Below, piece after piece: positions 1 to 24,052 of a stretch of DNA of 64,000 nucleotides. Source of the DNA: Escherichia phage vB_EcoM_HZ_ZJUN4; the sequence record PP216085. One strand, given 5' to 3'. The notes below the pieces were generated by a model. That model made no database searches. It saw nothing but the letters and a program-made list of their open reading frames with translations, and was not told the origin of the DNA. The position numbers and the translations under genes were made by a program. Position 1 is the first letter of the stretch. Every line of letters starts with the position of its first letter.

Positions 1-1566
1 AAAGGAATGCTTGAGAACGGGTTTAAGCTTGGTAATGCACAGATTGAAACCCCTAAATCAATCGGCGTTGCTACTGCAATTATGGCACAAATTACTGCAC
101 AGGTTGCTTCCCATCAATACGGTGGAACGACTTTTGCGAATGTAGATAAAGTCCTTTCTCCTTATGTTAAACGCACCTATGCAAAACATATTGAAGACGC
201 GGAAAAATGGCAAATCACTGATGCGTTGAATTATGCCCAATCTAAAACAGAAAAAGATGTATACGATGCGTTCCAAGCTTATGAATATGAAGTAAATACT
301 CTCTTTAGTTCAAACGGACAAACGCCTTTTGTAACAATTACATTTGGTACGGGAACTGACTGGACTGAACGAATGATTCAGAAAGCAATTCTGAAAAATC
401 GTATTAAAGGTCTTGGTCGTGACGGGATAACTCCTATTTTCCCTAAACTTGTTATGTTCGTTGAAGAAGGTGTTAATCTTTATAAAGACGATCCGAACTA
501 TGATATTAAGCAGCTTGCTCTAGAGTGTGCAAGCAAAAGAATGTATCCTGATATTATTTCAGCTAAGAACAATAAAGCTATCACCGGTTCATCTATTCCT
601 GTTTCTCCAATGGGTTGCCGTAGTTTCTTGAGCGTATGGAAAGATTCGACTGGTAATGAAATTCTTGATGGACGTAATAATCTTGGTGTTGTAACACTGA
701 ATCTTCCTCGCATTGCACTAGATTCTTATATTGGAACACAGTTCAATGAACAGAAATTTGCCGAATTGTTCAATGAGAGAATGGATTTATGTTTTGAAGC
801 ATTGATGTGTAGAATTAGTTCCTTAAAAGGAGTTAAAGCTACTGTTGCTCCTATTCTTTACCAAGAAGGTGCATTCGGGGTTCGTCTTAAACCTGATGAC
901 GATATAATTGAGTTATTTAAAAACGGTAGAAGTTCAGTGTCCCTAGGATACATTGGTATTCACGAATTGAATATTCTTGTCGGTCGTGATATTGGACAAG
1001 AAATTTTAACTAAAATGAATACTCATCTTAAGCAGTGGACTGAAAGAACCGGTTTTGCTTTTAGCTTGTATTCTACTCCTGCTGAAAACCTGTGCTATCG
1101 CTTCTGTAAACTTGATACTGAGAAATATGGAAGTGTAAAAGATGTTACTGATAAAGGATGGTACACTAATAGTTTCCATGTTTCAGTAGAAGAAAATATC
1201 ACTCCGTTTGAAAAGATTTCTCGTGAAGCACCATATCATTTCATTGCGACAGGTGGTCACATTTCTTATGTTGAACTTCCTGATATGAAAAATAACTTAA
1301 AAGGTCTTGAGGCTGTATGGGATTATGCTGCGCAACATTTAGATTATTTTGGCGTTAACATGCCAGTAGATAAATGTTTTACGTGTGGAAGTACCCATGA
1401 AATGACTCCTACTGAAAACGGATTTGTTTGTTCTATTTGTGGAGAAACTGATCCTAAAAAGATGAACACAATAAGAAGAACTTGTGGTTATTTGGGAAAT
1501 CCGAATGAACGCGGATTTAATCTTGGCAAAAATAAAGAAATCATGCATAGGGTTAAACACCAATGA
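1..1566 (+). CDS. nrdD: anaerobic ribonucleoside-triphosphate reductase NrdD, C-terminal ~520 codons (5' end upstream of window)
   Basis: ORF runs from window edge; C-terminal glycyl-radical motif RRTCGYLGN and Zn-ribbon CFTCGS..CSICGE; followed by nrdG as in T-even phages; no intron in visible part. Confidence 0.9.
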   Translation, partial: KGMLENGFKLGNAQIETPKSIGVATAIMAQITAQVASHQYGGTTFANVDKVLSPYVKRTYAKHIEDAEKWQITDALNYAQSKTEKDVYDAFQAYEYEVNTLFSSNGQTPFVTITFGTGTDWTERMIQKAILKNRIKGLGRDGITPIFPKLVMFVEEGVNLYKDDPNYDIKQLALECASKRMYPDIISAKNNKAITGSSIPVSPMGCRSFLSVWKDSTGNEILDGRNNLGVVTLNLPRIALDSYIGTQFNEQKFAELFNERMDLCFEALMCRISSLKGVKATVAPILYQEGAFGVRLKPDDDIIELFKNGRSSVSLGYIGIHELNILVGRDIGQEILTKMNTHLKQWTERTGFAFSLYSTPAENLCYRFCKLDTEKYGSVKDVTDKGWYTNSFHVSVEENITPFEKISREAPYHFIATGGHISYVELPDMKNNLKGLEAVWDYAAQHLDYFGVNMPVDKCFTCGSTHEMTPTENGFVCSICGETDPKKMNTIRRTCGYLGNPNERGFNLGKNKEIMHRVKHQ

Positions 1567-2402
1567 ATTACGATAGATTTTATCCCTGTGATTTTGTGAA
1601 TGATAAATTATCTTTAATATTTGAAGAAAATAATGATTTACTATTGTCATATGTTGATTTGATAACAAAAAATTATAATAATCCTAAAATAAAAGGAAAA
1701 ACGGAAGCACATCACGTGCTTCCCAAATCTATATTTCCCGAATATAAAACAGATAAATGGAATATTGTTAATTTGTCATATTATGACCACGCGTTAGCTC
1801 ATTACTATTTAGCTAAAACAAGTAATAGTAAAATGTGTTATGCCTTTCATAGAATGATAAACTCGAATACCGATAGATTTAATACAGATGAATTGGATGA
1901 AATTCTTAAATTGTATTCCAGTGAAAAGGAATTATTTCACCGCTCTATGTCAAAATTATCGAAAAATATATGGAAGGATGACGATTTTAGAAAAAGACAT
2001 AGAGAACTAACTAAGTTAGCAATGCAAAAACCTGAAGTTAGAAATAAAACTTTATTAAATTTGTCAAATGCAATGAAAACTGACGAAGTTAGAAATAAAA
2101 TTTCCAGGCTAACTAAGTTAGCAATGCAAAAACCTGAAGTAAAAGAAAAACATAGAAATTCATTGAGGTTGGCGTATGCAAATCCTGAGGTTATGAAAAG
2201 AAAACATCAACGTCTTCGAGAAAAATATACTCTTAATTTATTTGGCGCATATAAAGATGGTGTTCTTTTAAAAACATTTAATTATATACCAGACGCAGCA
2301 AAATATTTTAATATTTCTAGCAAAGGAAATATTTTAAAATGTTTAAATGGCGAACGTAAAAGTGTTGAAGGCTATAATTGGAAATATATAAATGAATTAT
2401 GA
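1563..2402 (+). CDS. HNH-family homing endonuclease-like protein (Mob-like)
   Basis: 279-aa ORF with HH..N..H core (EAHHVLPKS...NLSYYDHALAHYYL) resembling T4 Mob HNH proteins; ATGA overlap with nrdD stop; first 13 codons near-identical to nrdG start; internal repeated DNA-binding-like motifs. Confidence 0.65.
   Translation: MNYDRFYPCDFVNDKLSLIFEENNDLLLSYVDLITKNYNNPKIKGKTEAHHVLPKSIFPEYKTDKWNIVNLSYYDHALAHYYLAKTSNSKMCYAFHRMINSNTDRFNTDELDEILKLYSSEKELFHRSMSKLSKNIWKDDDFRKRHRELTKLAMQKPEVRNKTLLNLSNAMKTDEVRNKISRLTKLAMQKPEVKEKHRNSLRLAYANPEVMKRKHQRLREKYTLNLFGAYKDGVLLKTFNYIPDAAKYFNISSKGNILKCLNGERKSVEGYNWKYINEL
2007..2143 (+). repeat. direct repeat of ~34 bp (ctaactaagttagcaatgcaaaaacctgaagt) about 100 bp apart inside the HNH gene
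   Basis: Two near-identical copies starting at 2007 and 2109 encoding LTKLAMQKPEV; gaagttagaaataaa also recurs. Confidence 0.8.
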
Positions 2403-2862
2403 CAGAATATACCCGTGCTGCTTTGTGAATGGCCCTGGATGCAGGACCGTTCTTTTCGTTACAGGTTGTTTGCATAAATGTGAAGGGTGTTATAATAAAT
2501 CAACATGGAATGCTAGAAATGGCGTTCCATTCACTGGTGAAACACTGGAACAATTAATTAAATGTTTGAATAATGATTATATAGAAGGATTAACTATAAC
2601 TGGAGGAGACCCTCTTTATCCTGATAACCGAGATGTTGTTCATTGCATTGTTCAAACAGTAAAAAATCTTTATCCAAATAAAAGCATTTGGTTGTGGACA
2701 GGATATAAGTTTGAAGATATTAAACAACTAGAAATGCTTAAATATGTTGATGTTATTATTGATGGGAAGTATGAGAAAAATCTTCCGACCAAAAAGCTGT
2801 GGCGAGGTTCAGATAATCAGCGACTTTGGTCAAATACCGATGGGGTGTGGAAACATGATTAA
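2392..2862 (+). CDS. nrdG: anaerobic ribonucleotide reductase activating protein (radical SAM)
   Basis: 156 aa; radical-SAM cysteine motif CLHKCEGC; position after nrdD. Confidence 0.9.
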   Translation: MNYDRIYPCCFVNGPGCRTVLFVTGCLHKCEGCYNKSTWNARNGVPFTGETLEQLIKCLNNDYIEGLTITGGDPLYPDNRDVVHCIVQTVKNLYPNKSIWLWTGYKFEDIKQLEMLKYVDVIIDGKYEKNLPTKKLWRGSDNQRLWSNTDGVWKHD

Positions 2863-2952
2863 ACTGAATTATATTATTGATACTATAAATGATATGATTT
2901 TTCATTTTGGTCCAGAATTTTATTCGCAGTATAGTTTAGTACTTATCAATGC

Positions 2953-3192
2953 TTGGTTAATCAATTAAGGGTAAATATGTATAAATTTCGTAAAGGTTTA
3001 GCTGATTTTCTTACAACTGTAACGTTCTTTTTGTTTATGGCAGTTGGTGCTATTTTTCTTATTCCTTTTATTGCTATATTTTTCGTGATTAGTTTGATTT
3101 CTCCAGAAAAAGGACTGTCTTCTAGCGAGTTCAATGAACGCCTGGATAAAATTACTAATAAGCTGAATGCTGTTCTTGATAAAAAGGATTAA
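2953..3192 (+). CDS. hypothetical small membrane protein
   Basis: 79-aa ORF with long hydrophobic segment. Confidence 0.5.
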   Translation: MVNQLRVNMYKFRKGLADFLTTVTFFLFMAVGAIFLIPFIAIFFVISLISPEKGLSSSEFNERLDKITNKLNAVLDKKD

Positions 3193-3194
3193 TT

Positions 3195-3506
3195 ATGATT
3201 AGTTTTGAGCGGTATGTGGTAGAGAGTTGGAAAGGTTTTGATATGTTCGGTAATGACTATTATTTTTACGAATGTAATCTAAATCCTAGTTTTTGGGCTG
3301 GACGTGAACGAGATCTCGAAGAAATTAATGCTCGTGCCGAATTGTTAGGTGAACTACCTACGGTTTATTTTACCTTTGATGCATCTGGATTTGTTATCCA
3401 GGTTTATTTTCCTGAAGAAAACTCTGGTGAGGATTCTGTTAACCCGCCATACTGGGCTTATCAAGGAATTATTTCTCGTGGAACAAAACTCGAACTTAAA
3501 GAATAA
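3195..3506 (+). CDS. hypothetical protein
   Basis: 103-aa ORF, protein-like composition, tightly packed with neighbours. Confidence 0.5.
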   Translation: MISFERYVVESWKGFDMFGNDYYFYECNLNPSFWAGRERDLEEINARAELLGELPTVYFTFDASGFVIQVYFPEENSGEDSVNPPYWAYQGIISRGTKLELKE

Positions 3507-3801
3507 GATTGAAGTCTATGGAATTCCAGATGAAGTAGGTCGTTGTCCTGGATGTCAATCAGTTACAAAACTTCTAAAGGAGCTCAATGCTCCTTTTACT
3601 TTCTATAAAGTTCTTACAAATAATGGTAAGATCGAGTATGATCGTCCATTGATTGTATCTCTTGCTAAACGCGCTGGATTCACATCTCTTAACATTCGTT
3701 ATCCAGTCATTTTCATCAATGATTCTAGACAAAAGAACATTAAACACTTCAAAGAAACTCTCATTTCACTTGGATATGATAGAGATATCATAGAAGACTA
3801 A
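3478..3801 (+). CDS. nrdH: glutaredoxin-like protein (NrdH-like); start codon uncertain (GTG 3478 proposed, ATT 3508 possible)
   Basis: IEVYGIPDEVGRCPGCQS thioredoxin-fold CxxC motif; no in-frame ATG upstream of the motif outside the overlapping upstream ORF; AAGGAA 9 nt before GTG 3478. Confidence 0.5.
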   Translation: MEQNSNLKNKIEVYGIPDEVGRCPGCQSVTKLLKELNAPFTFYKVLTNNGKIEYDRPLIVSLAKRAGFTSLNIRYPVIFINDSRQKNIKHFKETLISLGYDRDIIED

Positions 3802-3804
3802 GAC

Positions 3805-3825
3805 GGGCCCTCTGGGCCTTTCTTT
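3805..3825 (+). terminator. putative hairpin terminator (ggccc tct gggcc + U-rich)
   Basis: Short GC stem followed by tttctttc. Confidence 0.35.
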
Positions 3826-3892
3826 CTCGCATTCTGTATATTACCATTCTAAGCTATCGTTCCCTTCTTATCATTCCCTAAAATAATTTCAC

Positions 3893-3930
3893 AAAGTTGT
3901 TTACAAGAAGTTCAAACTGTGGTATTATTA
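3893..3930 (+). promoter_or_regulatory. T4-type early promoter (GTTTAC -35 at 3899-3904, TATTAT -10 at 3923-3928, A-rich upstream)
   Basis: Match to T4 early promoter pattern GTTTAC-N18-TGGTATAAT. Confidence 0.55.
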
Positions 3931-3958
3931 ACATATGAATTGCCTTTGAGGATTTGAT

Positions 3959-4141
3959 ATGGTTGTGGTTGATAAAGAAATTAAAAAGGGACAATATTAT
4001 TTTATTAATGGTAATGTTGTTCGTGTTACTTATGTAAACGGTTTTGAAGTTTATTATCTTATACTCAAGTTACATAAACAGATGATTTGTGATCGTGCTG
4101 TATTTAGTTCAGTTGCTAAGGAAATTAAACTCCATGGGTAA
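3959..4141 (+). CDS. hypothetical protein
   Basis: 60-aa ORF directly downstream of early promoter. Confidence 0.4.
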   Translation: MVVVDKEIKKGQYYFINGNVVRVTYVNGFEVYYLILKLHKQMICDRAVFSSVAKEIKLHG

Positions 4142-4259
4142 AACGTATCGTCGTAAAGATTTAAAAGTACGTGATTATGACTATTTCGGAAAGCGTAAAG
4201 CTCCTGATGGTGTAAGTCATAAAGATATGGTTGAAAACATTTTTCACTCAGATAAATGA
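4134..4259 (+). CDS. hypothetical small basic protein (41 aa)
   Basis: ATG overlapping upstream stop; not in ORF track (below 60 aa). Confidence 0.3.
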   Translation: MGKTYRRKDLKVRDYDYFGKRKAPDGVSHKDMVENIFHSDK

Positions 4260-4350
4260 CGTAGAATGAAAGGCATTGATTCAGAAGTTAAAGATGAGTT
4301 AAATCGTCAATTACGTGGTGAAGTAAGAAAGTTGAAAAAATCAGTTTACA

Positions 4351-4566
4351 TTGACGATGATTTTGATTACAATACTTCTCAACGAGTTGCTAAGCGTAAA
4401 TCAAACGAGTGCTATCGTTACAGCTGAGGAAAATATGAATATCAAACGCATGCTTTTTAAACAGGGATTATATACTTTAAATGTTGCTCCAAAAGGCGAT
4501 ACGACCAAGTGGTCAGTAAATGACTGGATTAAATTTATTGATGAAAACGGTAACTGGAAAATTTAA
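4351..4566 (+). CDS. hypothetical protein
   Basis: 71-aa ORF in 55-proximal small-ORF cluster. Confidence 0.4.
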   Translation: MTMILITILLNELLSVNQTSAIVTAEENMNIKRMLFKQGLYTLNVAPKGDTTKWSVNDWIKFIDENGNWKI

Positions 4567-4767
4567 ATGAATCCTGAATCTAAATTATCGCAACGAATTG
4601 CTGAAGCTCGTCGTCAGTTCTTTGAAAATATGATAGCCCAAGGTATTGATGACGAAGTTTTTCTGAACTGGTTTTGGAATCACAAATATTCAAAATGCGC
4701 AGGAGCAATATTAATATCAGCCGCAATGATGTACGAAGGCTGGAAGGGTGCCAAACAGTTTAGCTAA
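4567..4767 (+). CDS. hypothetical protein
   Basis: 66-aa ORF abutting previous stop, followed by terminator hairpin. Confidence 0.45.
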   Translation: MNPESKLSQRIAEARRQFFENMIAQGIDDEVFLNWFWNHKYSKCAGAILISAAMMYEGWKGAKQFS

Positions 4768-4785
4768 GGGCTTCGGCCCTTTTTG
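4767..4785 (+). terminator. intrinsic terminator hairpin agggcttcggccct + TTTT
   Basis: GC stem with UUCG tetraloop and T run. Confidence 0.6.
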
Positions 4786-4819
4786 GATAATAAAATTTTA
4801 ATGCAATTGAGGATAATGT

Positions 4820-5146
4820 ATGACTATTCAAATTAAAAACGCCATCAATTCTTACGCATATGATAAAGTAGTTTCTTTGCTAGAAAAAGGCGATATTGTA
4901 ACTCCTCAAATTTTGGATAAATGGGAAAAAGAGCTTCATCAGACGATGAAACAGAATGATCAGAAAATTGGACGAAATACTATCCGTGAATTGTTGGTTC
5001 AATATATCTTGTCAGAATTTGATGTTAAAGCTTTTGGCGTAGAATCTAAAGCTTATCAAAAGCATGAAATTTCTGATAAAACTATTCGTCGTATGAAAAA
5101 TCAACGCAAGAAAAAATTTGCTGACCTGAAAATTGCTAAGGTATGA
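4820..5146 (+). CDS. hypothetical protein
   Basis: 108-aa ORF. Confidence 0.45.
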   Translation: MTIQIKNAINSYAYDKVVSLLEKGDIVTPQILDKWEKELHQTMKQNDQKIGRNTIRELLVQYILSEFDVKAFGVESKAYQKHEISDKTIRRMKNQRKKKFADLKIAKV

Positions 5147-5364
5147 ATATGAACGAAGCTCTTATTAACGATTTGCGTCTTGCCGGATATGAAGTAAATA
5201 CAAACGGCATTGGTTTAACTCAAATTGAAGGAAATGGATTCATCCTTGAGTATGAATTTAGCCAATGGTGGTTATACGCTAATTACGGCGAATTGATTGA
5301 ATACGTTGACCAGTTTGATTCACTAGATGCAGCTCTCGAAGCGGCTAAGTTGATGAATGTATGA
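5143..5364 (+). CDS. hypothetical protein
   Basis: 73-aa ORF, ATGA overlap with upstream gene. Confidence 0.45.
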   Translation: MNMNEALINDLRLAGYEVNTNGIGLTQIEGNGFILEYEFSQWWLYANYGELIEYVDQFDSLDAALEAAKLMNV

Positions 5365-5630
5365 AATTTATTAATATTTCTATTACTATTGAAAATTATG
5401 GAATTTTCTATGTTGACCAATACATGAAAATTTCATTTTTCCCAAATAAGACTGGTGTTGGATATTGGGAAAGCCATGTTTCTGAATTAAATGAAAGTGA
5501 ATATGCTAGCACACATGAAAAGTTTTTAGACTTTTTATATCATGCTGATTTAACTAGTCATTACATAGATATTCATGAATTTAAAAAGATGATGGAGAAA
5601 GTGTTCCAAGCATACTGTTTACTTAGATAA
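5361..5630 (+). CDS. hypothetical protein
   Basis: 89-aa ORF, ATGA overlap. Confidence 0.4.
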   Translation: MKFINISITIENYGIFYVDQYMKISFFPNKTGVGYWESHVSELNESEYASTHEKFLDFLYHADLTSHYIDIHEFKKMMEKVFQAYCLLR

Positions 5631-7202: not shown

Positions 7203-8405
7203 ATGAAAGTATGTATTTTTATGGCTCGAGGTCTTGAAGGTTGCGGTGTAACTAAATTTTCTCTTGAGCAGCGTGATTGGTTTATTAAAAATGGTCATGA
7301 AGTAACTTTGGTTTATGCTAAAGATAAATCATTTACTCGTAATTGCGCGCATGATTATAAATCATTTTCAATTCCGGTTTTATTGGCAAAAGAATACGAT
7401 AAAACACTTAAGTTGGTAAATGATTGTGATATTCTAATTATCAATTCAGTTCCTGCTACTTCAGTTGAAGAAGACACGATTAATAACTATAAAAAAATTA
7501 TTGATAACATTAAACCTTCGGTTCGTGTTGTAGTTTATCAGCATGACCATTCTTCTCTTTCTTTACGCCGAAATTTGGGATTAGAAGAAACTGTTCGTCG
7601 AGCTGATGTTATTTTTAGCCATTCTGATAATGGCGATTTTAATAAAGTTTTAATGAAAGAATGGTATCCAGAAACTGTTTCACTGTTTGATGATATTGAA
7701 GAAGCACCGACTGTATATAACTTTCAGCCTCCTATGGATATTGCGAAGGTTCGATCAACTTACTGGAAAGATGTTTCTGAAATTAACATGAATATCAACC
7801 GTTGGATTGGTCGTACTACTACATGGAAAGGCTTTTATCAGATGTTTGATTTTCACGAAAAACATCTTAAACCTGCAGGACTAAGTACTATTATGGAAGG
7901 TCTGGAACGTTCTCCAGCGTTCATTCCTATTAAAGAAAAAGGAATTCCATACGAGTATTATCGTCTTCATCAAGTAGACCAAATTAAAATTGCTCCTAAT
8001 TTGCCAACGCAAATTCTCGACCGTTATGTAAATAGCGAAATGCTTGAACGTATGAGTAAATCCGGATTTGGTTATCAGCTGAGTAAATTAGATAAAAAAT
8101 ATCTACAACGTTCTTTAGAATACACTCATCTCGAGCTTGGTGCATGCGGAACAATTCCAGTATTTTGGAAATCTACTGGTGAAAATTTAAAATTCCGTGT
8201 TGATAATACTCCGTTAATTTCTCATGATAGCGGTATCGTTTGGTTTGATGAAAATGACATGAAATCAACATTTGAGCGTATTAAAGAACTGTCATCTGAC
8301 CGAGCTCTTTATGACCGTGAACGTGAAAAAGCTTATGAATTTTTGTATCAGCATCAAGATTCAAGCTTCTGCTTTAAAGAGCAGTTTGACATTATTACAA
8401 AATAA
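7203..8405 (+). CDS. a-gt: DNA alpha-glucosyltransferase
   Basis: 400-aa ORF MKVCIFMARGLEGCGVTKF... recognised as T4 alpha-gt; position upstream of 47. Confidence 0.88.
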   Translation: MKVCIFMARGLEGCGVTKFSLEQRDWFIKNGHEVTLVYAKDKSFTRNCAHDYKSFSIPVLLAKEYDKTLKLVNDCDILIINSVPATSVEEDTINNYKKIIDNIKPSVRVVVYQHDHSSLSLRRNLGLEETVRRADVIFSHSDNGDFNKVLMKEWYPETVSLFDDIEEAPTVYNFQPPMDIAKVRSTYWKDVSEINMNINRWIGRTTTWKGFYQMFDFHEKHLKPAGLSTIMEGLERSPAFIPIKEKGIPYEYYRLHQVDQIKIAPNLPTQILDRYVNSEMLERMSKSGFGYQLSKLDKKYLQRSLEYTHLELGACGTIPVFWKSTGENLKFRVDNTPLISHDSGIVWFDENDMKSTFERIKELSSDRALYDREREKAYEFLYQHQDSSFCFKEQFDIITK

Positions 8406-15136: not shown

Positions 15137-17833
15137 ATGAAAGAATTTTATATCTCTATTGAAACAGTCGGAAATAACATTGTTGAACGTTATATTGATG
15201 AAAATGGAAAGGAACGTACTCGTGAAGTAGAATATCTTCCGACTATGTTTAGGCATTGTAAGGAAGAGTCAAAATACAAAGACATTTATGGTAAAAATTG
15301 TGCTCCTCAAAAATTTCCATCAATGAAAGATGCCCGAGACTGGATGAAACGAATGGAAGACATCGGTCTCGAAGCTCTCGGTATGAACGATTTTAAACTC
15401 GCTTATATCAGTGATACATATGGTTCAGAAATTGTTTATGACCGAAAATTTGTTCGTGTAGCTAACTGTGACATTGAGGTTACTGGTGATAAATTTCCTG
15501 ACCCAATGAAAGCAGAATATGAAATTGATGCTATCACTCATTATGATTCAATTGACGACCGTTTTTACGTCTTTGATTTGTTGAATTCAATGTACGGTTC
15601 AGTATCAAAATGGGATGCAAAGTTAGCTGCTAAGCTTGACTGTGAAGGTGGTGATGAAGTTCCTCAAGAAATTCTTGACCGAGTAATTTATATGCCATTT
15701 GATAATGAGCGTGATATGCTCATGGAATATATTAATCTCTGGGAACAGAAACGACCTGCTATTTTTACTGGTTGGAATATTGAGGGATTTGACGTTCCGT
15801 ATATCATGAATCGTGTTAAAATGGTTCTCGGCGAACGCAGTATGAAACGCTTCTCTCCAATCGGTCGAGTAAAATCTAAACTAATTCAAAATATGTACGG
15901 TAGCAAAGAAATTTATTCTATTGATGGCGTATCTATTCTTGATTATTTAGATTTGTACAAGAAATTCGCATTTACTAATTTGCCATCATTCTCTTTGGAA
16001 TCAGTTGCTCAGCACGAAACCAAAAAAGGTAAATTACCATACGACGGTCCTATTAATAAACTTCGTGAGACTAATCATCAACGATACATTAGTTATAACA
16101 TCATTGACGTAGAATCAGTTCAAGCAATTGATAAAATTCGCGGGTTTATTGATCTAGTTTTAAGTATGTCTTATTACGCTAAAATGCCTTTTTCTGGTGT
16201 AATGAGTCCTATTAAAACTTGGGATGCTATTATTTTTAACTCATTGAAAGGTGAACATAAGGTTATTCCTCAACAAGGTTCGCACGTTAAACAAAGTTTT
16301 CCAGGTGCATTTGTATTTGAACCTAAAGCGATTGCTCGTCGATACATTATGAGTTTTGACTTGACGTCTCTGTATCCGAGTATTATTCGTCAGGTTAACA
16401 TTAGTCCTGAAACTATTCGTGGTCAGTTTAAAGTTCATCCAATTCATGAATATATCGCAGGAACAGCTCCTAAACCGAGTGATGAATATTCTTGTTCTCC
16501 GAATGGATGGATGTATGATAAGCATCAAGAAGGTATCATTCCAAAGGAAATCGCTAAAGTATTTTTCCAGCGTAAAGATTGGAAAAAGAAAATGTTCGCC
16601 GAAGAAATGAATGCCGAAGCTATTAAAAAGATTATTATGAAAGGTGCAGGGTCTTGTTCAACTAAACCAGAAGTTGAACGATATGTTAAGTTCAATGATG
16701 ATTTCTTAAATGAATTATCGAATTACACCGAATCTGTTCTTAATAGTCTGATCGAAGAATGTGAAAAAGCAGCTACACTTGCTAACACAAATCAGCTGAA
16801 CCGTAAAATTCTTATTAACAGTCTTTATGGTGCTCTTGGTAACATTCATTTCCGCTATTATGATTTGCGAAATGCTACTGCTATCACAATTTTTGGTCAA
16901 GTCGGTATTCAGTGGATTGCTCGTAAAATTAATGAATACCTGAATAAAGTGTGTGGAACTGATGGTGAAGATTTCATTGCAGCGGGTGACACTGATTCTG
17001 TATATGTTTGTGTAGATAAAGTAATTGAAAAAGTAGGTCTTGACCGCTTTAAAGAACAAAATGATTTAGTTGAATTCATGAATCAGTTCGGTAAGAAAAA
17101 GATGGAACCTATGATTGATGTTGCATATCGTGAGTTATGTGATTATATGAATAACCGCGAGCATCTGATGCATATGGACCGTGAAGCTATTTCTTGTCCT
17201 CCGCTTGGTTCAAAGGGTGTCGGTGGATTTTGGAAAGCGAAAAAACGTTATGCTCTAAACGTTTATGATATGGAAGATAAGCGATTTGCTGAACCACATC
17301 TAAAAATCATGGGTATGGAAACTCAGCAGAGTTCAACACCAAAAGCAGTACAAGAAGCTCTCGAAGAAAGTATTCGTCGTATTCTTCAGGAAGGCGAAGA
17401 GTCTGTCCAAGAATACTACAAGAACTTTGAGAAAGAATATCGTCAACTTGACTATAAAGTTATTGCTGAAGTAAAAACTGCGAATGATATAGCGAAATAT
17501 GATGATAAAGGTTGGCCAGGATTTAAATGCCCGTTCCACATTCGCGGGGTGCTAACTTATCGTCGAGCTGTTAGTGGTTTAGGTGTAGCTCCAATTTTGG
17601 ATGGAAATAAGGTAATGGTTCTTCCATTACGTGAGGGAAATCCATTTGGTGACAAGTGCATTGCTTGGCCATCAGGTACGGAACTTCCAAAAGAAATTCG
17701 TTCTGATGTACTGTCTTGGATTGACTACTCAACTTTGTTCCAAAAATCGTTTGTTAAACCGCTTGCGGGCATGTGTGAATCGGCAGGTATGGACTATGAG
17801 GAAAAAGCTTCGTTAGACTTCCTGTTTGGCTGA
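15137..17833 (+). CDS. 43: DNA polymerase gp43 (family B, with 3'-5' exonuclease)
   Basis: 898 aa; exonuclease and polymerase motifs (DIE, YGDTDS-like AGDTDSVYV). Confidence 0.95.
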   Translation: MKEFYISIETVGNNIVERYIDENGKERTREVEYLPTMFRHCKEESKYKDIYGKNCAPQKFPSMKDARDWMKRMEDIGLEALGMNDFKLAYISDTYGSEIVYDRKFVRVANCDIEVTGDKFPDPMKAEYEIDAITHYDSIDDRFYVFDLLNSMYGSVSKWDAKLAAKLDCEGGDEVPQEILDRVIYMPFDNERDMLMEYINLWEQKRPAIFTGWNIEGFDVPYIMNRVKMVLGERSMKRFSPIGRVKSKLIQNMYGSKEIYSIDGVSILDYLDLYKKFAFTNLPSFSLESVAQHETKKGKLPYDGPINKLRETNHQRYISYNIIDVESVQAIDKIRGFIDLVLSMSYYAKMPFSGVMSPIKTWDAIIFNSLKGEHKVIPQQGSHVKQSFPGAFVFEPKAIARRYIMSFDLTSLYPSIIRQVNISPETIRGQFKVHPIHEYIAGTAPKPSDEYSCSPNGWMYDKHQEGIIPKEIAKVFFQRKDWKKKMFAEEMNAEAIKKIIMKGAGSCSTKPEVERYVKFNDDFLNELSNYTESVLNSLIEECEKAATLANTNQLNRKILINSLYGALGNIHFRYYDLRNATAITIFGQVGIQWIARKINEYLNKVCGTDGEDFIAAGDTDSVYVCVDKVIEKVGLDRFKEQNDLVEFMNQFGKKKMEPMIDVAYRELCDYMNNREHLMHMDREAISCPPLGSKGVGGFWKAKKRYALNVYDMEDKRFAEPHLKIMGMETQQSSTPKAVQEALEESIRRILQEGEESVQEYYKNFEKEYRQLDYKVIAEVKTANDIAKYDDKGWPGFKCPFHIRGVLTYRRAVSGLGVAPILDGNKVMVLPLREGNPFGDKCIAWPSGTELPKEIRSDVLSWIDYSTLFQKSFVKPLAGMCESAGMDYEEKASLDFLFG

Positions 17834-18402: not shown

Positions 18403-18654
18403 ATGGAAACTTTAGTAGCAGGTTCAATTTTTATGGTTTTAGTTTCAGGCGTGTTGGCTATTATTATATACATGCTTCCATGGTTCATCGCCTTGATGCG
18501 CGGGTCAAAATCGACAGTAGGAATCTTTTTCACATCTTTACTGTTTAACTGGTCAATTATTGGTTGGTTTATTACATTTATTTGGTCAATTGCTGGTGAA
18601 ACTAAAAAATCTGCGCAGCCAAATCAGGTAATTATCATCAGAGAGAAGGAATGA
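18403..18654 (+). CDS. imm: superinfection immunity membrane protein Imm
   Basis: 83-aa two-helix membrane protein between 43 and 42 as in T4. Confidence 0.75.
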   Translation: METLVAGSIFMVLVSGVLAIIIYMLPWFIALMRGSKSTVGIFFTSLLFNWSIIGWFITFIWSIAGETKKSAQPNQVIIIREKE

Positions 18655-18807
18655 AAAGCAAAATTTTAGCAGTATTGCTTTTAATATTGATGATTATAAT
18701 AAGTATATACTATAGCGTAACAGTTCCTTGTATGATTCCGCCACTTATTATAGGTTGGGGTTTATTACTGTTACAAGTTAAATATGAATGTATCAATTGA
18801 GGTTTAA

Positions 18808-19548
18808 ATGATTAATGACTCTATGACAGTTGAAGAAATTCGTCTTCATTTGGGAATTGCATTAAAGGAAAAAGATTTTGTAATTGACAAAACCGGGGTT
18901 AAAACTATTGAAATTATTGGTGCATCATTTGTAGCAGATGAACCTTTTATTTTTGGCGCTCTTAATGATGAATACATTCAGCGTGAACTTGAATGGTATA
19001 AGTCTCAAAGTTTGTTTGTTAAAGATATTCCAGGTGAAACACCAAAGATTTGGCAGCAGGTAGCATCTTCTAAAGGCGAAATTAACTCGAATTATGGTTG
19101 GGCTATTTGGTCAGAAGATAACTATGCTCAGTATGATATGTGTTTAGCTGAACTTGGTCAAAATCCTGATTCTCGGCGTGGTATCATGATTTATACTCGT
19201 CCATCCATGCAGTTTGACTACAATAAAGATGGTATGTCAGATTTCATGTGTACGAATACAGTACAGTACCTGATTCGTGATAAGAAAGTCAATGCAGTAG
19301 TAAGCATGAGAAGCAATGATTGCTGGGCAGGCTATCGTAATGATTATGCTTGGCAAAAATACGTACTAGATAAATTAGTATCTGACTTGAATGCAGGCGA
19401 CCCATCGCGGCAATATAAAGCAGGTTCTATTATATGGAACGTTGGAAGTCTTCATGTGTACGAAAATCAGTTTTATTTAGTTGACCATTGGTGGAACACC
19501 GGTGAGACTCATATTGCTAAAAAGGATTATACTGGAAAATGGAAGTAA
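18808..19548 (+). CDS. 42: dCMP hydroxymethylase gp42
   Basis: 246 aa; thymidylate-synthase-like fold sequence recognised as T4 gp42. Confidence 0.9.
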   Translation: MINDSMTVEEIRLHLGIALKEKDFVIDKTGVKTIEIIGASFVADEPFIFGALNDEYIQRELEWYKSQSLFVKDIPGETPKIWQQVASSKGEINSNYGWAIWSEDNYAQYDMCLAELGQNPDSRRGIMIYTRPSMQFDYNKDGMSDFMCTNTVQYLIRDKKVNAVVSMRSNDCWAGYRNDYAWQKYVLDKLVSDLNAGDPSRQYKAGSIIWNVGSLHVYENQFYLVDHWWNTGETHIAKKDYTGKWK

Positions 19549-20180
19549 ATGTGCCACATGTTTATAAGTATAAACATCCTAAAACTAAAAAGTGGTATAT
19601 AGGAAGTCATGATGGTCACAACCCGAATTATGATGGTTCGGGTGTAGTTTGGCAACATGCTAAAAAGAAATATGGAATAAAATCCTTTAATAAAGAAATA
19701 TTATATGAAGGACCAATGTTTAGACAGGTTGAAGAAATTATTTTAACTTGTTTAGATGCTGCTAATTGTCCGGATTCATATAATTTAAAGAATGAAGCAT
19801 GGGGAGGAAGTTTTCCAGGCAAATTAAATGGAATGTACGGTAAAAAACTATCTCCAGAAGAAAGATATAAGTGCGGAAATGCCTTTCGTGGAATCAAGCG
19901 TCCTGATCATTCTAAAAGAATGAAAGGCGAAGGTAATCCAATGTATGGTAAAAATGAGCAGGCATATGGAATTATAAATCGAGCCAAGGAAAATTCTGGT
20001 AAAACTTATGAAGAAATTTTTGGCGTAGAAAAAGCTAAAATAATTAAAGAAACGATGTCTAAAAATCGTAAAGGAAAACCTCATAATTTGATAGAAAAAA
20101 TATGTCCGCATTGCGGACTAAAAGGACGTGGGCCAAATATGACAAGATACCATTTTGACAAATGTAAGGCACTTAAATGA
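19539..20180 (+). CDS. GIY-YIG homing endonuclease-like protein (Seg-like)
   Basis: N-terminal VYKYKHPKTKKWYIGS (GIY..YIG variant); C-terminal CPHCG..C zinc finger; overlaps gene 42 stop. Confidence 0.6.
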   Translation: MEVNVPHVYKYKHPKTKKWYIGSHDGHNPNYDGSGVVWQHAKKKYGIKSFNKEILYEGPMFRQVEEIILTCLDAANCPDSYNLKNEAWGGSFPGKLNGMYGKKLSPEERYKCGNAFRGIKRPDHSKRMKGEGNPMYGKNEQAYGIINRAKENSGKTYEEIFGVEKAKIIKETMSKNRKGKPHNLIEKICPHCGLKGRGPNMTRYHFDKCKALK

Positions 20181-21019
20181 TTCAATTCGTAATTCCAAGT
20201 TATCAACGCGTAGGGGCAGTTTCTGCCCTTGATATGTTTCCGACTGATTATGAACCTCATATTGTAGTACGTGAACACGAAGAAAAAGCTTATTATGACG
20301 CTTACGGGTCTAGAGCTAAAATTATAACTATTCCTGATGATGTTAATGGAATTGCTGGAACTCGTAAAGCAATTACTGATATGTATGCAGGTCAACGAAT
20401 CTGGATGATTGACGATGATACTACTATTCGTATGAGTTCAATGCGAAAGAAAGATGATCGTCGCTGCGTAGATAAAATTAACCAGTTAACTCGTGAACAG
20501 TTCTATGAATTGATTCAATACGTTGAAGATGCCATGGATTGCGGGTATTATCATGGTCATGCTCGTTTACCTATTTTTAAAATTACTTCATCTTGGGGTA
20601 ATTATCGTGAAAATTCATATGGATTCACGAATACTTGGTATGACCTCGGAAAACTTGCAACAGAACAAATTGGGTATGGAAAAATTGATTTATGCGAAGA
20701 TATGTATGCATTTCTCAATTTAATTAATCAAGGTTATCCGCATTTGGCCTTGTTCAAATATCTAGTTGTATCTGGAAAAGCACAGGCTCCCGGTGGATGC
20801 AGCTCAATTCGTAGTAATTCAAAACATAATAGAGCGCTTGAGCAAATCAATAGAGAGTTTCCAGAGCAAGCTCGTTGGAAAACTTCTAATATTGAAAAAC
20901 GAAAATCATTGGGTGAAGAAGACGAGCCATTAAAGGTTCTTCGCATGTGTGTTTCACGCAAAGAAAAGTCAGAAGCATTTCATAAGTTTAATGCTATTCA
21001 TCCAATAGCAGTTGATTAA
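20177..21019 (+). CDS. putative glycosyltransferase with DxD motif (WMIDDDTT); candidate T2/T6-type beta-glucosyl-HMC-alpha-glucosyltransferase at the T4 beta-gt locus
   Basis: 280-aa ORF between 42 and uvsX; no resemblance to T4 beta-gt as I recall it; DxD after hydrophobic strand. Confidence 0.4.
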   Translation: MIQFVIPSYQRVGAVSALDMFPTDYEPHIVVREHEEKAYYDAYGSRAKIITIPDDVNGIAGTRKAITDMYAGQRIWMIDDDTTIRMSSMRKKDDRRCVDKINQLTREQFYELIQYVEDAMDCGYYHGHARLPIFKITSSWGNYRENSYGFTNTWYDLGKLATEQIGYGKIDLCEDMYAFLNLINQGYPHLALFKYLVVSGKAQAPGGCSSIRSNSKHNRALEQINREFPEQARWKTSNIEKRKSLGEEDEPLKVLRMCVSRKEKSEAFHKFNAIHPIAVD

Positions 21020-21096: not shown

Positions 21097-22278
21097 ATGT
21101 CTATTGCAGATTTAAAATCCCGTTTGATTAAAGCTTCCACTTCTAAAATGACTGCTGAACTGACTACATCTAAATTCTTTAATGAAAAGGATGTAATCCG
21201 TACAAAAATCCCAATGCTTAATATCGCTATTTCAGGTGCGATTGACGGTGGTATGCAGTCTGGTTTAACCATTTTTGCAGGTCCTTCTAAACACTTTAAA
21301 TCAAATATGTCTTTGACTATGGTTGCGGCGTATTTGAACAAATATCCTGACGCGGTATGTCTATTTTATGATAGCGAATTTGGTATTACTCCAGCTTATT
21401 TGCGATCCATGGGAGTTGACCCGGAACGAGTAATTCATACACCAATCCAGTCAGTTGAACAACTGAAAATTGATATGGTGAATCAGCTTGAAGCTATTGA
21501 GCGCGGTGAAAAAGTTATTGTATTCATCGACTCAATCGGTAATATGGCTTCTAAGAAAGAAACGGAAGATGCCTTGAATGAAAAATCTGTGGCAGATATG
21601 ACTCGTGCTAAATCACTGAAGTCATTATTCCGTATTGTTACTCCTTATTTTAGCATTAAAAATATTCCATGCGTTGCGGTTAACCATACAATTGAAACAA
21701 TTGAAATGTTTAGTAAAACCGTGATGACAGGTGGTACAGGCGTAATGTATTCGGCTGATACTGTATTCATTATCGGTAAGCGTCAGATTAAAGATGGTTC
21801 TGATCTTCAGGGGTATCAATTTGTTCTAAATGTAGAAAAATCTCGTACCGTTAAAGAAAAAAGTAAATTCTTTATTGATGTTAAATTTGACGGTGGTATC
21901 GATCCTTATTCTGGATTGTTAGATATGGCTCTTGAATTAGGATTTGTGGTAAAACCTAAAAATGGCTGGTATGCTCGTGAATTTCTTGATGAAGAAACCG
22001 GCGAGATGATTCGTGAAGAAAAATCTTGGCGTGCAAAAGATACCAATTGCACTACATTCTGGGGTCCTTTATTTAAGCATCAACCATTCCGAGATGCTAT
22101 TAAACGTGCTTATCAGTTAGGTGCTATTGATAGTAATGAAATTGTTGAAGCTGAAGTTGATGAATTGATTAACTCAAAGGTTGAAAAATTTAAATCTCCA
22201 GAAAGTAAAAGTAAATCAGCAGCTGATTTAGAAACTGACCTAGAACAGTTAAGTGATATGGAAGAATTTAATGAATAA
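21097..22278 (+). CDS. uvsX: recombinase UvsX (RecA-like)
   Basis: 393 aa; MSIADLKSRLIKASTSK... and Walker A GPSKHFKS recognised as UvsX. Confidence 0.93.
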   Translation: MSIADLKSRLIKASTSKMTAELTTSKFFNEKDVIRTKIPMLNIAISGAIDGGMQSGLTIFAGPSKHFKSNMSLTMVAAYLNKYPDAVCLFYDSEFGITPAYLRSMGVDPERVIHTPIQSVEQLKIDMVNQLEAIERGEKVIVFIDSIGNMASKKETEDALNEKSVADMTRAKSLKSLFRIVTPYFSIKNIPCVAVNHTIETIEMFSKTVMTGGTGVMYSADTVFIIGKRQIKDGSDLQGYQFVLNVEKSRTVKEKSKFFIDVKFDGGIDPYSGLLDMALELGFVVKPKNGWYAREFLDEETGEMIREEKSWRAKDTNCTTFWGPLFKHQPFRDAIKRAYQLGAIDSNEIVEAEVDELINSKVEKFKSPESKSKSAADLETDLEQLSDMEEFNE

Positions 22279-22624: not shown

Positions 22625-24052
22625 GTGGTAGAAATTATTCTTTCTCATCTCATATTTGATCAAGCTTATTTTTCAAAAGTTTGGCCATATATGGATTCAG
22701 AATATTTTGAAAGTGGTCCAGCTAAAAATACATTCAAATTAATTAAATCACATGTTAATGAGTATCATAGCGTTCCATCTATTAATGCGTTAAATGTTGC
22801 ATTAGAAAATAGTTCATTTACTGAAACAGAATATTCTGGTGTAAAAACACTTATTTCAAAACTAACCGATTCTCCGGAAGACCACAGCTGGTTAGTAAAA
22901 GAAACAGAAAAATATGTTCAGCAAAGGGCGATGTTTAACGCCACATCTAAAATAATTGAAATTCAAACCAATGCTGAGCTTCCTCCAGAAAAACGAAATA
23001 AGAAAATGCCGGATGTAGGTGCTATTCCTGACATCATGCGCCAAGCATTATCAATTTCATTTGATAGTTACGTTGGTCATGATTGGATGGATGACTATGA
23101 AGCACGTTGGCTATCTTATATGAATAAAGCTCGTAAGGTTCCATTTAAACTCAAAATTCTAAATAAAATTACTAAAGGCGGAGCTGAGACTGGAACACTG
23201 AACGTTTTAATGGCTGGTGTTAACGTTGGTAAGTCATTAGGTCTATGTTCATTGGCAGCAGATTATTTGCAGCTCGGTCATAATGTTCTTTACATTTCAA
23301 TGGAAATGGCAGAAGAAGTCTGTGCTAAACGTATTGACGCTAATATGCTTGACGTTTCTCTTGATGACATTGATGATGGGCATATTTCTTACGCTGAATA
23401 TAAAGGAAAAATGGAAAAATGGCGTGAGAAATCTACTCTCGGTCGTTTAATCGTTAAACAGTATCCTACTGGTGGTGCAGACGCTAATACATTTCGTTCT
23501 CTTTTGAACGAATTGAAGCTCAAGAAGAATTTTGTTCCAACAATCATTATTGTTGACTATCTAGGTATTTGTAAATCTTGTCGCATCAGAGTTTACTCAG
23601 AAAATAGTTACACAACTGTTAAAGCTATCGCAGAGGAATTGCGTGCTCTGGCTGTTGAAACCGAAACTGTTCTTTGGACTGCAGCACAGGTTGGTAAGCA
23701 GGCTTGGGATTCTTCTGATGTTAACATGAGCGATATTGCAGAATCCGCCGGTCTTCCAGCAACAGCCGATTTTATGCTTGCGGTCATTGAAACCGAGGAG
23801 TTAGCAGCTGCTGAACAACAACTCATTAAGCAAATCAAATCACGATATGGTGATAAGAATAAATGGAATAAGTTTTTGATGGGTGTTCAAAAAGGAAATC
23901 AAAAATGGGTAGAAATTGAGCAAGATTCTACTCCAACCGAAGTGAACGAAGTAGCAGGTTCACAGCAGATTCAGGCTGAGCAGAATCGCTATCAAAGAAA
24001 CGAATCTACTCGAGCCCAGTTAGATGCTTTGGCAAATGAATTAAAATTTTAG
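22625..24052 (+). CDS. 41: replicative DNA helicase gp41 (DnaB-like)
   Basis: 475 aa; Walker A GVNVGKS; GTG start; recognised as T4 gp41. Confidence 0.93.
   Translation: MVEIILSHLIFDQAYFSKVWPYMDSEYFESGPAKNTFKLIKSHVNEYHSVPSINALNVALENSSFTETEYSGVKTLISKLTDSPEDHSWLVKETEKYVQQRAMFNATSKIIEIQTNAELPPEKRNKKMPDVGAIPDIMRQALSISFDSYVGHDWMDDYEARWLSYMNKARKVPFKLKILNKITKGGAETGTLNVLMAGVNVGKSLGLCSLAADYLQLGHNVLYISMEMAEEVCAKRIDANMLDVSLDDIDDGHISYAEYKGKMEKWREKSTLGRLIVKQYPTGGADANTFRSLLNELKLKKNFVPTIIIVDYLGICKSCRIRVYSENSYTTVKAIAEELRALAVETETVLWTAAQVGKQAWDSSDVNMSDIAESAGLPATADFMLAVIETEELAAAEQQLIKQIKSRYGDKNKWNKFLMGVQKGNQKWVEIEQDSTPTEVNEVAGSQQIQAEQNRYQRNESTRAQLDALANELKF

Follow-up and report, generated by a model that had tools for sequence, protein, structure and literature searches.

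The question raised by a 64,000-nucleotide stretch of Escherichia phage vB_EcoM_HZ_ZJUN4 (sequence record PP216085; hereafter the window) is whether the two genes that lie between gene 42 and uvsX form one mobile unit or have come there separately. The window is a segment of a T-even-type (Tequatrovirus) genome, with genes taken from a list of open reading frames (ORFs), all on the plus strand. In T4, the slot between gene 42, coding for deoxycytidine monophosphate (dCMP) hydroxymethylase, and uvsX holds the beta-glucosyltransferase gene beta-gt plus segA (Table 1 of PMC2988022; also the T4 record), while in the window it holds ORFs for proteins of 213 and 280 amino acids. A first-pass annotation of the sequence had pointed out both ORFs, the overlap of the shorter one with the gene 42 stop codon, and two peptides: VYKYKHPKTKKWYIGS, residues 8–23 of the 213-residue protein, and RIWMIDDDTT, which contains D79–D81 of the 280-residue protein. 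All of these are present in the ORF list. We consider it likely that the locus consists of two independent things: the beta-glucosyl-HMC-alpha-glucosyltransferase gene of T2 and T6 (ba-gt), where HMC or hmC stands for hydroxymethylcytosine, and a Seg-type homing endonuclease gene, here called seg, whose product would cut in gene 42.

The gene seg is linked to gene 42 and not to ba-gt. When IMG/VR was scanned with gp42, the product of gene 42, only 5 of 80 loci were from Tequatroviruses, so the comparison was built from individually fetched GenBank records: eight Tequatrovirus loci with seg (seg+) and eleven without (seg-), plus that of T4. The gp42 of the window is 92–98% identical to T4/T2-type gp42. 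Over nucleotides 1–501 of gene 42 there are zero fixed differences between the seg+ and seg- phages, and the divergence between the groups equals that within them (1–6%). Nucleotides 502–741, on the other hand, contain 37 fixed differences, with a between-group divergence of 10–34% against a within-group divergence of 1–6%. On the other side of seg, ba-gt again has zero fixed differences. The nucleotide diversity among seven seg+ genomes is 3.6% for gene 42 nucleotides 1–500, 1.6% for nucleotides 501–741, 0.9% for seg and 4.4% for ba-gt. The low diversity of seg and the last third of gene 42, compared with the sequences flanking them, indicates that this unit spread recently, its right edge falling sharply at the seg/ba-gt junction. 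With the last 259 nucleotides of gene 42 as query, blastn against a phage collection gives a bimodal result, with 85 records at an identity of at least 90% and 410 at 80–90%.

A similar breakpoint is found in an unrelated lineage, known from metagenomes in the IMG/VR scan, whose gp42 is about 61% identical to that of the window. There, the seg+ locus L016 and the seg- locus L041 differ by 0–8% up to about nucleotide 480 of gene 42 and by 12–43% beyond it, and the seg-linked 3' part of gene 42 is nearly identical among members of the lineage that have mosaic 5' parts. More distant relatives of seg also keep gene 42 as their upstream neighbour. In Klebsiella phages, homologues with 65–71% identity follow gene 42 and precede a ba-gt-like gene; in Yersinia phage MHG19 a homologue in the same identity range also follows gene 42, with a T4-type beta-gt next to it. 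Homologues with 45–61% identity lie behind a thymidylate-synthase-family gene in three quite different contexts, followed by an ORF of unknown function (L101), a helicase gene (L103) or a T4-type glucosyltransferase gene (L104). The association of seg with gene 42 is thus old, and the downstream neighbour is free. In the contigs that have a seg homologue of 53% identity (L101/L102, positions 4743–5390), a second ORF containing a NUMOD3 domain lies another 1 kb downstream, making this a cluster of endonuclease-like genes.

Within the gene 42 tract that accompanies seg, the most diverged block (block 1) is located at its very start; in the unrelated lineage, the breakpoint begins a few tens of nucleotides upstream of it. 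Block 1 reads AGAAGCAATGATTGCTGGGCAGGCTAT in the seg+ phages, coding for RSND-CWAGY, and CGCTCAAATGACGTGGTCTTCGGATTC in the seg- phages and T4, coding for RSND-VVFGF. The two forms differ not only in the amino acids encoded; there are also synonymous switches between six-fold codon families, with the arginine codons CGC or CGT replaced by AGA and the serine codon TCA by AGC. Selection acting on the DNA sequence itself would be expected to produce such synonymous recoding of several nucleotides at a time. The stretch of protein encoded by block 1 lies between two conserved motifs, RSND and RND(Y), which we take to be in the active-site region of thymidylate-synthase-family enzymes. When about 100 loci are compared, all those with seg or a remnant of it have the xWAG(Y/F) allele, and seg is present at no VVFG locus. 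A second block of clustered differences (block 2), where VY-ENQ-F replaces VY-SRH-F, varies together with block 1 throughout the gp42 family. These observations make block 1 a candidate target site, in which the form coding for CWAGY would confer resistance to the seg nuclease.

Phage ERS-1 (PP337211, L100, positions 1319–2060) has the variant tract from about nucleotide 500 to about nucleotide 700 of gene 42, while its last 40 nucleotides are of the T2 type, and it does not have seg. It belongs to a group of about 12 records of an intermediate identity class (90–95%). A conversion tract that begins upstream of the insertion site would produce the ERS-1 pattern.

The 213-residue protein was assigned to the endonucleases by several routes. 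It matches PHROG 314, 'homing endonuclease', with an E-value of 2e-31, and a large protein database contains 70 homologues, 42 of which were aligned. In Pfam, 15 of these 42 match SegE_GIY-YIG, 7 match GIY-YIG and 30 match NUMOD3. Direct sequence searches of the 213- and 280-residue proteins against PDB chains gave no meaningful match; for the former, the sole route to a PDB entry was its family profile, which matches the I-TevI structure 1LN0 across the whole domain (E=1.3e-3). The modelled fold is the GIY-YIG alpha/beta fold and matches the I-TevI catalytic domain. Residues Y9, Y20, G22, E65 and N82 align to Y6, Y17, G19, E75 and N90 of I-TevI, which places the tyrosines, the glutamate and the asparagine on catalytic positions and agrees with the GIY-YIG type given to the ORF in the first-pass annotation. 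In the sequence V-Y9-K ... Y20-I-G22, the two tyrosines are spaced by 11 residues, like Y6 and Y17 of I-TevI. Among the 42 homologues, Y20 and G22 are invariant, Y9, E65 and N82 are at least 90% conserved and Y31-x-G33-S-G35 is invariant or nearly so. The C-terminal zinc finger that had also been noted is equally well preserved: in its CPHC...H...C arrangement, C189, C192, H205 and C209 are invariant. The gene belongs among the free-standing homing endonuclease genes of the T4 Seg kind, and its product is predicted to be an active nuclease.

Like the 213-residue protein, the T4 proteins SegA to SegG (PF19835, PF01541) have an amino-terminal GIY-YIG domain, a YxGSG sequence that replaces the Arg27/His31 helix segment of I-TevI, and NUMOD3-type repeats. 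Their genes are likewise inserted between conserved genes, patchily distributed among relatives and linked to flanking markers in a co-conversion-like way. The closest T4 paralogues on alignment are SegC (34% identity) and SegA (28%); neither of them shares the CCHC zinc knuckle. The insertion site between gene 42 and ba-gt is different from those of the T4 seg genes, and the gene itself is not found in T4, T2 or T6. T4 segA, which also codes for a GIY-YIG homing endonuclease, shares the variable slot between gene 42 and uvsX and likewise adjoins the second glucosyltransferase gene (PMC2988022; PMC6024577), but it is located between beta-gt and uvsX and its product cuts uvsX, whereas seg is on the gene 42 side, with gene 42 as its proposed target. 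That the gene in the window is a relocated T4 segA was rejected on the basis of the 28% identity, the different carboxy-terminus and the position on the opposite side of the glucosyltransferase gene. I-TevI, the td intron endonuclease (PDB entries 1LN0 and 1MK0), is intron-encoded and has a different DNA-binding end; the free-standing gene of the window lacks the ten-residue segment containing Arg27. Database labels for the gene are inconsistent (hypothetical, 'segC-like', 'segD', 'segE' and 'intron-like endonuclease'). Full-text literature searches returned no description of a homing endonuclease encoded between gene 42 and ba-gt, nor a published activity, cut site or name; PMC8056088 makes only the general remark that this region gains and loses homing endonuclease genes. 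The endonuclease is therefore a new, unnamed and uncharacterised member of a known family, which it extends with a predicted target in an essential nucleotide-metabolism gene.

Both genes are conserved and not chance ORFs, since they recur in many records: about 77 phage records carry the 213-residue ORF at an identity of at least 95%, versus about 471, by tblastn, that carry the same ba-gt (T2, RB14, RB32 and RB51 among them). T2 and T6 are among the phages without seg. At empty sites (T2, T6, RB14, RB51, ime09, wV7 and others), the gene 42 stop codon overlaps the ba-gt start codon in the sequence ATGA, with no ORF in between. The insertion measures 632 bp and is located exactly between the gene 42 stop and the ba-gt start, with the overlapping stop and start recreated at its right end, where the seg stop and the ba-gt start again share an ATGA. 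At the left end, the start of seg overlaps the gene 42 stop by 10 nucleotides. Empty and occupied sites are also found within the distant lineage (L019 and L016, respectively). Among close copies of seg, synonymous changes outnumber non-synonymous ones by about 2.5:1. The copy in phage Shinka (MZ502379, L002, positions ~3055–3062) has one extra A in the A-run before the zinc knuckle, which leads to a +1 frameshift; either the copy is decaying or the extra A is a sequencing error in the homopolymer. In Klebsiella phage GF (L005, positions 2501–2590) and three metagenomic contigs (L070–L072, positions ~3770–3870), only the last 30–35 codons of seg, containing the zinc knuckle, survive after gene 42. 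The gp42 match of phage GF ends at residue 214, so the deletion there may also extend into the end of gene 42.

From these data a mechanism can be proposed, in which the seg product would introduce a double-strand break in the VVFG-type gene 42 of a seg-less competitor during mixed infection. The likeliest cut would be at or near the sequence coding for RSND-VVFGF-RND, at about nucleotides 500–530 of the gene and some 210–240 bp upstream of the insertion point. UvsX-dependent recombination from the seg+ genome would repair the break, copying in the resistant form of the gene 42 3' end, with RSND-CWAGY and the recoded arginine and serine codons. The seg gene itself would be copied too if the tract extends over the 210–240 bp to the end of the gene. 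Such a process would explain the mosaicism of gene 42, whose 3' end comes in two sharply distinct forms in phages that are otherwise nearly identical, and it has a bearing on phage typing, on recombination-based phage engineering at this locus and on how marker exclusion in mixed infections is interpreted.

Several points weigh against seg as a nuclease directed at block 1. Nucleotides 529–593 of gene 42 are nearly identical between the groups, making the tract patchy, a pattern that a single import from a distant donor would not produce. The xWAGY/VVFG dimorphism of gp42 is old and also found in seg-less lineages (for instance L019, L021 and L055–L066), and the variant block may merely mark the donor lineage instead of being the determinant of resistance. 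ERS-1 could equally be a recombinant of seg+ and seg- phages that lost seg; its record is, moreover, unverified and contains frameshifts. The phages compared are about 20 of some 500 available records and are not phylogenetically independent. As for the protein, no Pfam GIY-YIG model (PF01541 or PF19835) is matched by the 213-residue sequence alone at E-values up to 0.1; its sole Pfam match is to NUMOD3, below the gathering score. The canonical Arg27 of I-TevI has no counterpart either: a ten-residue gap takes the place of the segment containing R27 and H31, where H-x6-Y-x-G-S-G is found instead. We take this last feature to be characteristic of the Seg subfamily and not to indicate an inactive enzyme, because T4 SegA and SegC, listed as active site-specific nucleases (PMC2988022), have the same gap and the same YxGSG arrangement; it sets the protein apart from canonical PF01541 members.

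The gap and the missing Pfam match would also fit a gene that has decayed or been domesticated into an immobile remnant, a vertically inherited passenger that is repeatedly lost. Frameshifted and truncated copies do exist, and distant copies are 58–62% identical, akin to the adjacent gp42 (about 60%), which fits long co-descent. We nevertheless regard this as very unlikely. The ORF is intact, its catalytic and zinc-binding residues are invariant across the 42 diverse homologues, the excess of synonymous changes is retained among close copies, and the proven nucleases SegA and SegC have the same motif variant; seg and its linked tract are, furthermore, much less diverse than their flanks on mosaic backgrounds in two lineages, which points to recent horizontal spread. 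A mobile endonuclease might instead cut at, or immediately beside, the site where its gene is inserted, the junction of the gene 42 stop and the ba-gt start, as intron-encoded enzymes do, with the gene 42 tract as hitch-hiking donor DNA. The insertion does destroy the ATGA junction of the seg- phages, fixed differences are also present in the last 30 nucleotides of gene 42 (711–740), and several lineages have the xWAGY allele but no seg. A cut at the junction is rather unlikely in our judgement, given that the left boundary of the tract is similar (about nucleotides 480–500) in two unrelated lineages and that ERS-1 has the variant tract while it lacks both the variant junction and seg. The junction and the downstream gene also vary among the homologues, while the sequence coding for RSND...RND is conserved, and for several of the T4 Seg and Mob enzymes the listed cut site is within a neighbouring gene and not at the insertion site (Table 1 of PMC2988022).

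The remaining explanation concerns the right-hand neighbour. If endonuclease and glucosyltransferase were one mobile cassette, the endonuclease would spread ba-gt, which would replace beta-gt; the first-pass annotation had suggested something similar in proposing that the endonuclease may promote the spread of the locus, and PMC8056088 raises the same general idea for the region. The abutting genes, with their overlapping stop and start codons, are what such a cassette might look like. In addition, the gene maps suggest that in a cross with a T4-type phage the nearest homology to the right of seg would be uvsX, forcing co-conversion of ba-gt over beta-gt plus segA. However, ba-gt has no fixed differences between seg+ and seg- phages, its diversity among seg+ phages (4.4%) is like that of the 5' part of gene 42, which is not linked to seg, and about 84% of the records with this ba-gt have no seg. 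The homologues of seg keep gene 42 and not the next gene: they adjoin T4-type beta-gt (MHG19, L104), a helicase gene (L103) or unknown ORFs (L016, L101). A single cassette is thus quite unlikely, and spread of the glucosyltransferase locus by the endonuclease was not borne out. For phages that already carry ba-gt, the diversity and fixed-difference data led us to reject that ba-gt rides with seg; in crosses with T4-type phages, it is possible that seg carries ba-gt along.

The second of the two independent genes, that for the 280-residue protein, is the known beta-glucosyl-HMC-alpha-glucosyltransferase gene of T2 and T6, and this half of the locus confirms textbook T-even biology. The protein matches PHROG 842, of that name, with an E-value of 6e-89, and Pfam PF20691 (TAGT) with 39.3 bits at a cut-off of 27.5 (E=8.6e-10), over positions 2–205 of the 205 in the profile. 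Its sequence is 98.2% identical to the T2 enzyme over all 280 residues and 97.5% identical to that of T6, which settles the relationship with the T2/T6 enzymes that had been suspected. The predicted structure has a GT-A fold, and in an alignment of 60 homologues, with identities down to 19%, D80 does not vary and the conservation of D79 and D81 is 90% or more; the earlier assignment as a DxD-motif, GT-A-like glycosyltransferase thus agrees with the Pfam match, the model and the conservation. The T2/T6 genes (UniProt Q06717 and Q06718) share with that of the window the length of 280 amino acids, the gene order 42–glucosyltransferase–uvsX, an alpha-glucosyltransferase gene (a-gt) as partner, the fold and the DxD motif, and can be considered the same gene. 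The difference is in the start, located on the stop of gene 42 in T2 and T6 and on the stop of the inserted endonuclease gene in the window; nothing else substantive differs. In the T6 record (MH550421, L099, positions 2138–2980, minus strand), ba-gt, labelled 'ggt', is annotated as 261 amino acids long, yet the alignment spans all 280 residues. The annotated start is probably too far downstream, because the amino-terminal strand (I6, P7 and R11) is conserved in distant homologues.

The gene a-gt, which the first-pass annotation had also reported, is present in the window, and its product would supply the alpha-glucosyl-hmC acceptor that the ba-gt product would extend, adding a second glucose from uridine diphosphate (UDP)-glucose in beta-1,6 linkage to give gentiobiosyl-hmC. 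This T2/T6-like modification, put forward in the first-pass annotation, is the chemistry expected from the combination of a-gt and ba-gt (PMC6024577, PMC13216743, PMC13390438). T2 and T6 make gentiobiosyl-hmC through homologous ba-gt enzymes (PMC6024577), the T6 enzyme being TAGT, with a predicted GT-A fold (PMC13216743). In Tequatroviruses with a-gt and TAGT, alpha-5-gentiobiosylmethyl-deoxycytidine was found by high-performance liquid chromatography and mass spectrometry (PMC13390438). The extent of gentiobiosylation is not predictable from sequence, because T2 and T6 have near-identical enzymes and reach 5% and 72%, respectively. Most 'RB' phages carry a-gt plus ba-gt (PMC6024577, PMC2993671); this is the common state in T-even-type phages, T4 being the exception (PMC2993671). 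The description of the T4 beta-gt locus as replaced therefore holds in that ba-gt sits in the slot, but the T4 slot contains segA as well as beta-gt, and with a-gt and ba-gt so common no special replacement is involved.

A wider reading of the seg family is doubtful and offered tentatively. Over a long period the seg lineage may have specialised in thymidylate-synthase-family genes for pyrimidine hydroxymethylases, cutting in the DNA that codes for RSND-x5-RND, with the gp42 alleles (VVFGF/Y versus xWAGY, and the co-varying RH versus NQ) kept by the dynamics of sensitive and resistant forms and with seg and T4 segA bracketing the glucosyltransferase slot. If this is true, a selfish nuclease shapes the sequence of an enzyme beside its active site, and rival endonucleases decide the hmC sugar pattern of the progeny when T4-type and T2/T6-type phages infect the same cell. 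The coordinates of the genes and motifs are collected in the table.

Table. Genes, motifs and variant segments of the locus in the window (nucleotide positions of the whole stretch).
Feature	Positions	Strand	Basis
a-gt (alpha-glucosyltransferase)	7203–8405	+	Pfam AGT PF11440, E=1.1e-235
Gene 43	15137–17833	+	ORF list
Gene 42 (dCMP hydroxymethylase), proposed target gene of the endonuclease	18808–19548	+	Pfam Thymidylat_synt, E=1.6e-14
Gene 42 3' tract inherited with seg (gene nucleotides 502–741), putative co-conversion tract	19309–19548	+	37 fixed differences
Block 1 (gene 42 nucleotides 502–528), candidate nuclease-resistant target-site variant	19309–19335	+	17 of 27 nucleotides are fixed differences
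Block 2 of clustered fixed differences (VY-ENQ-F for VY-SRH-F)	19461–19470	+	Comparison of seg+ and seg- phages
seg (213 amino acids), free-standing Seg-type GIY-YIG homing endonuclease gene	19539–20180	+	ORF list
GIY-YIG catalytic domain (about residues 7–90; Y9, Y20, G22, E65, Y81, N82)	19557–19808	+	Alignment to I-TevI
NUMOD3-like repeats (GxxNGMYGKK, GEGNPMYGK), putative minor-groove DNA-binding linker	19818–19958	+	Pfam NUMOD3, E=0.0027, sub-threshold
C-terminal CCHC zinc knuckle (CPHC-x5-GPNMTRYHF-x2-C)	20103–20165	+	Alignment of homologues
ba-gt (280 amino acids; TAGT), T2/T6 type	20177–21019	+	PHROG, Pfam
DDD (DxD) motif of ba-gt, D79–D81	20411–20419	+	Alignment of 60 homologues
uvsX, conserved right flank of the variable locus	21097–22278	+	Pfam T4_UVSX_C, E=4.7e-39; RecA
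Gene 41	22625–24052	+	ORF list

The DNA of the region is 97–98% identical to that of many sequenced coliphages, for example EP01, KFS-EC3 and ACG-C40. Upstream of gene 42, two small ORFs at 18651–18800 and 18403–18654 (both on the plus strand) correspond to 42.1 (49 amino acids) and imm (83 amino acids), respectively, in the annotation of RB14, RB51 and T4; 42.1 is omitted from several records. A scan for promoters and terminators around seg and ba-gt gave counts at chance level, and the T4 late promoter TATAAATA is absent from the vicinity; the scan thus gives no grounds for claiming separate regulation. Within the first 55 nucleotides of ba-gt there is a hairpin with a stem of 9 bp (20211–20231, plus strand; TAGGGGCAG-TTT-CTGCCCTTG), followed by a T-rich run. 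The hairpin sequence is identical in T2, a seg- phage, and the seg+ window, and in phage fPS-2 it is annotated as a terminator.

Other endonuclease-like genes are present elsewhere. In phage HY03 (NC_031047, L094, positions 3459–4439), uvsX is annotated as 310 amino acids long and is followed 44 nucleotides later by a coding sequence labelled 'homing endonuclease', which suggests another endonuclease insertion in or after uvsX. The window itself contains a second homing-endonuclease-like ORF of 279 amino acids (1563–2402, plus strand), located directly after an ORF of 519 amino acids (7–1566); it matches PHROG 655 with an E-value of 1.6e-36 and has an HNH-family match at residues 23–103.

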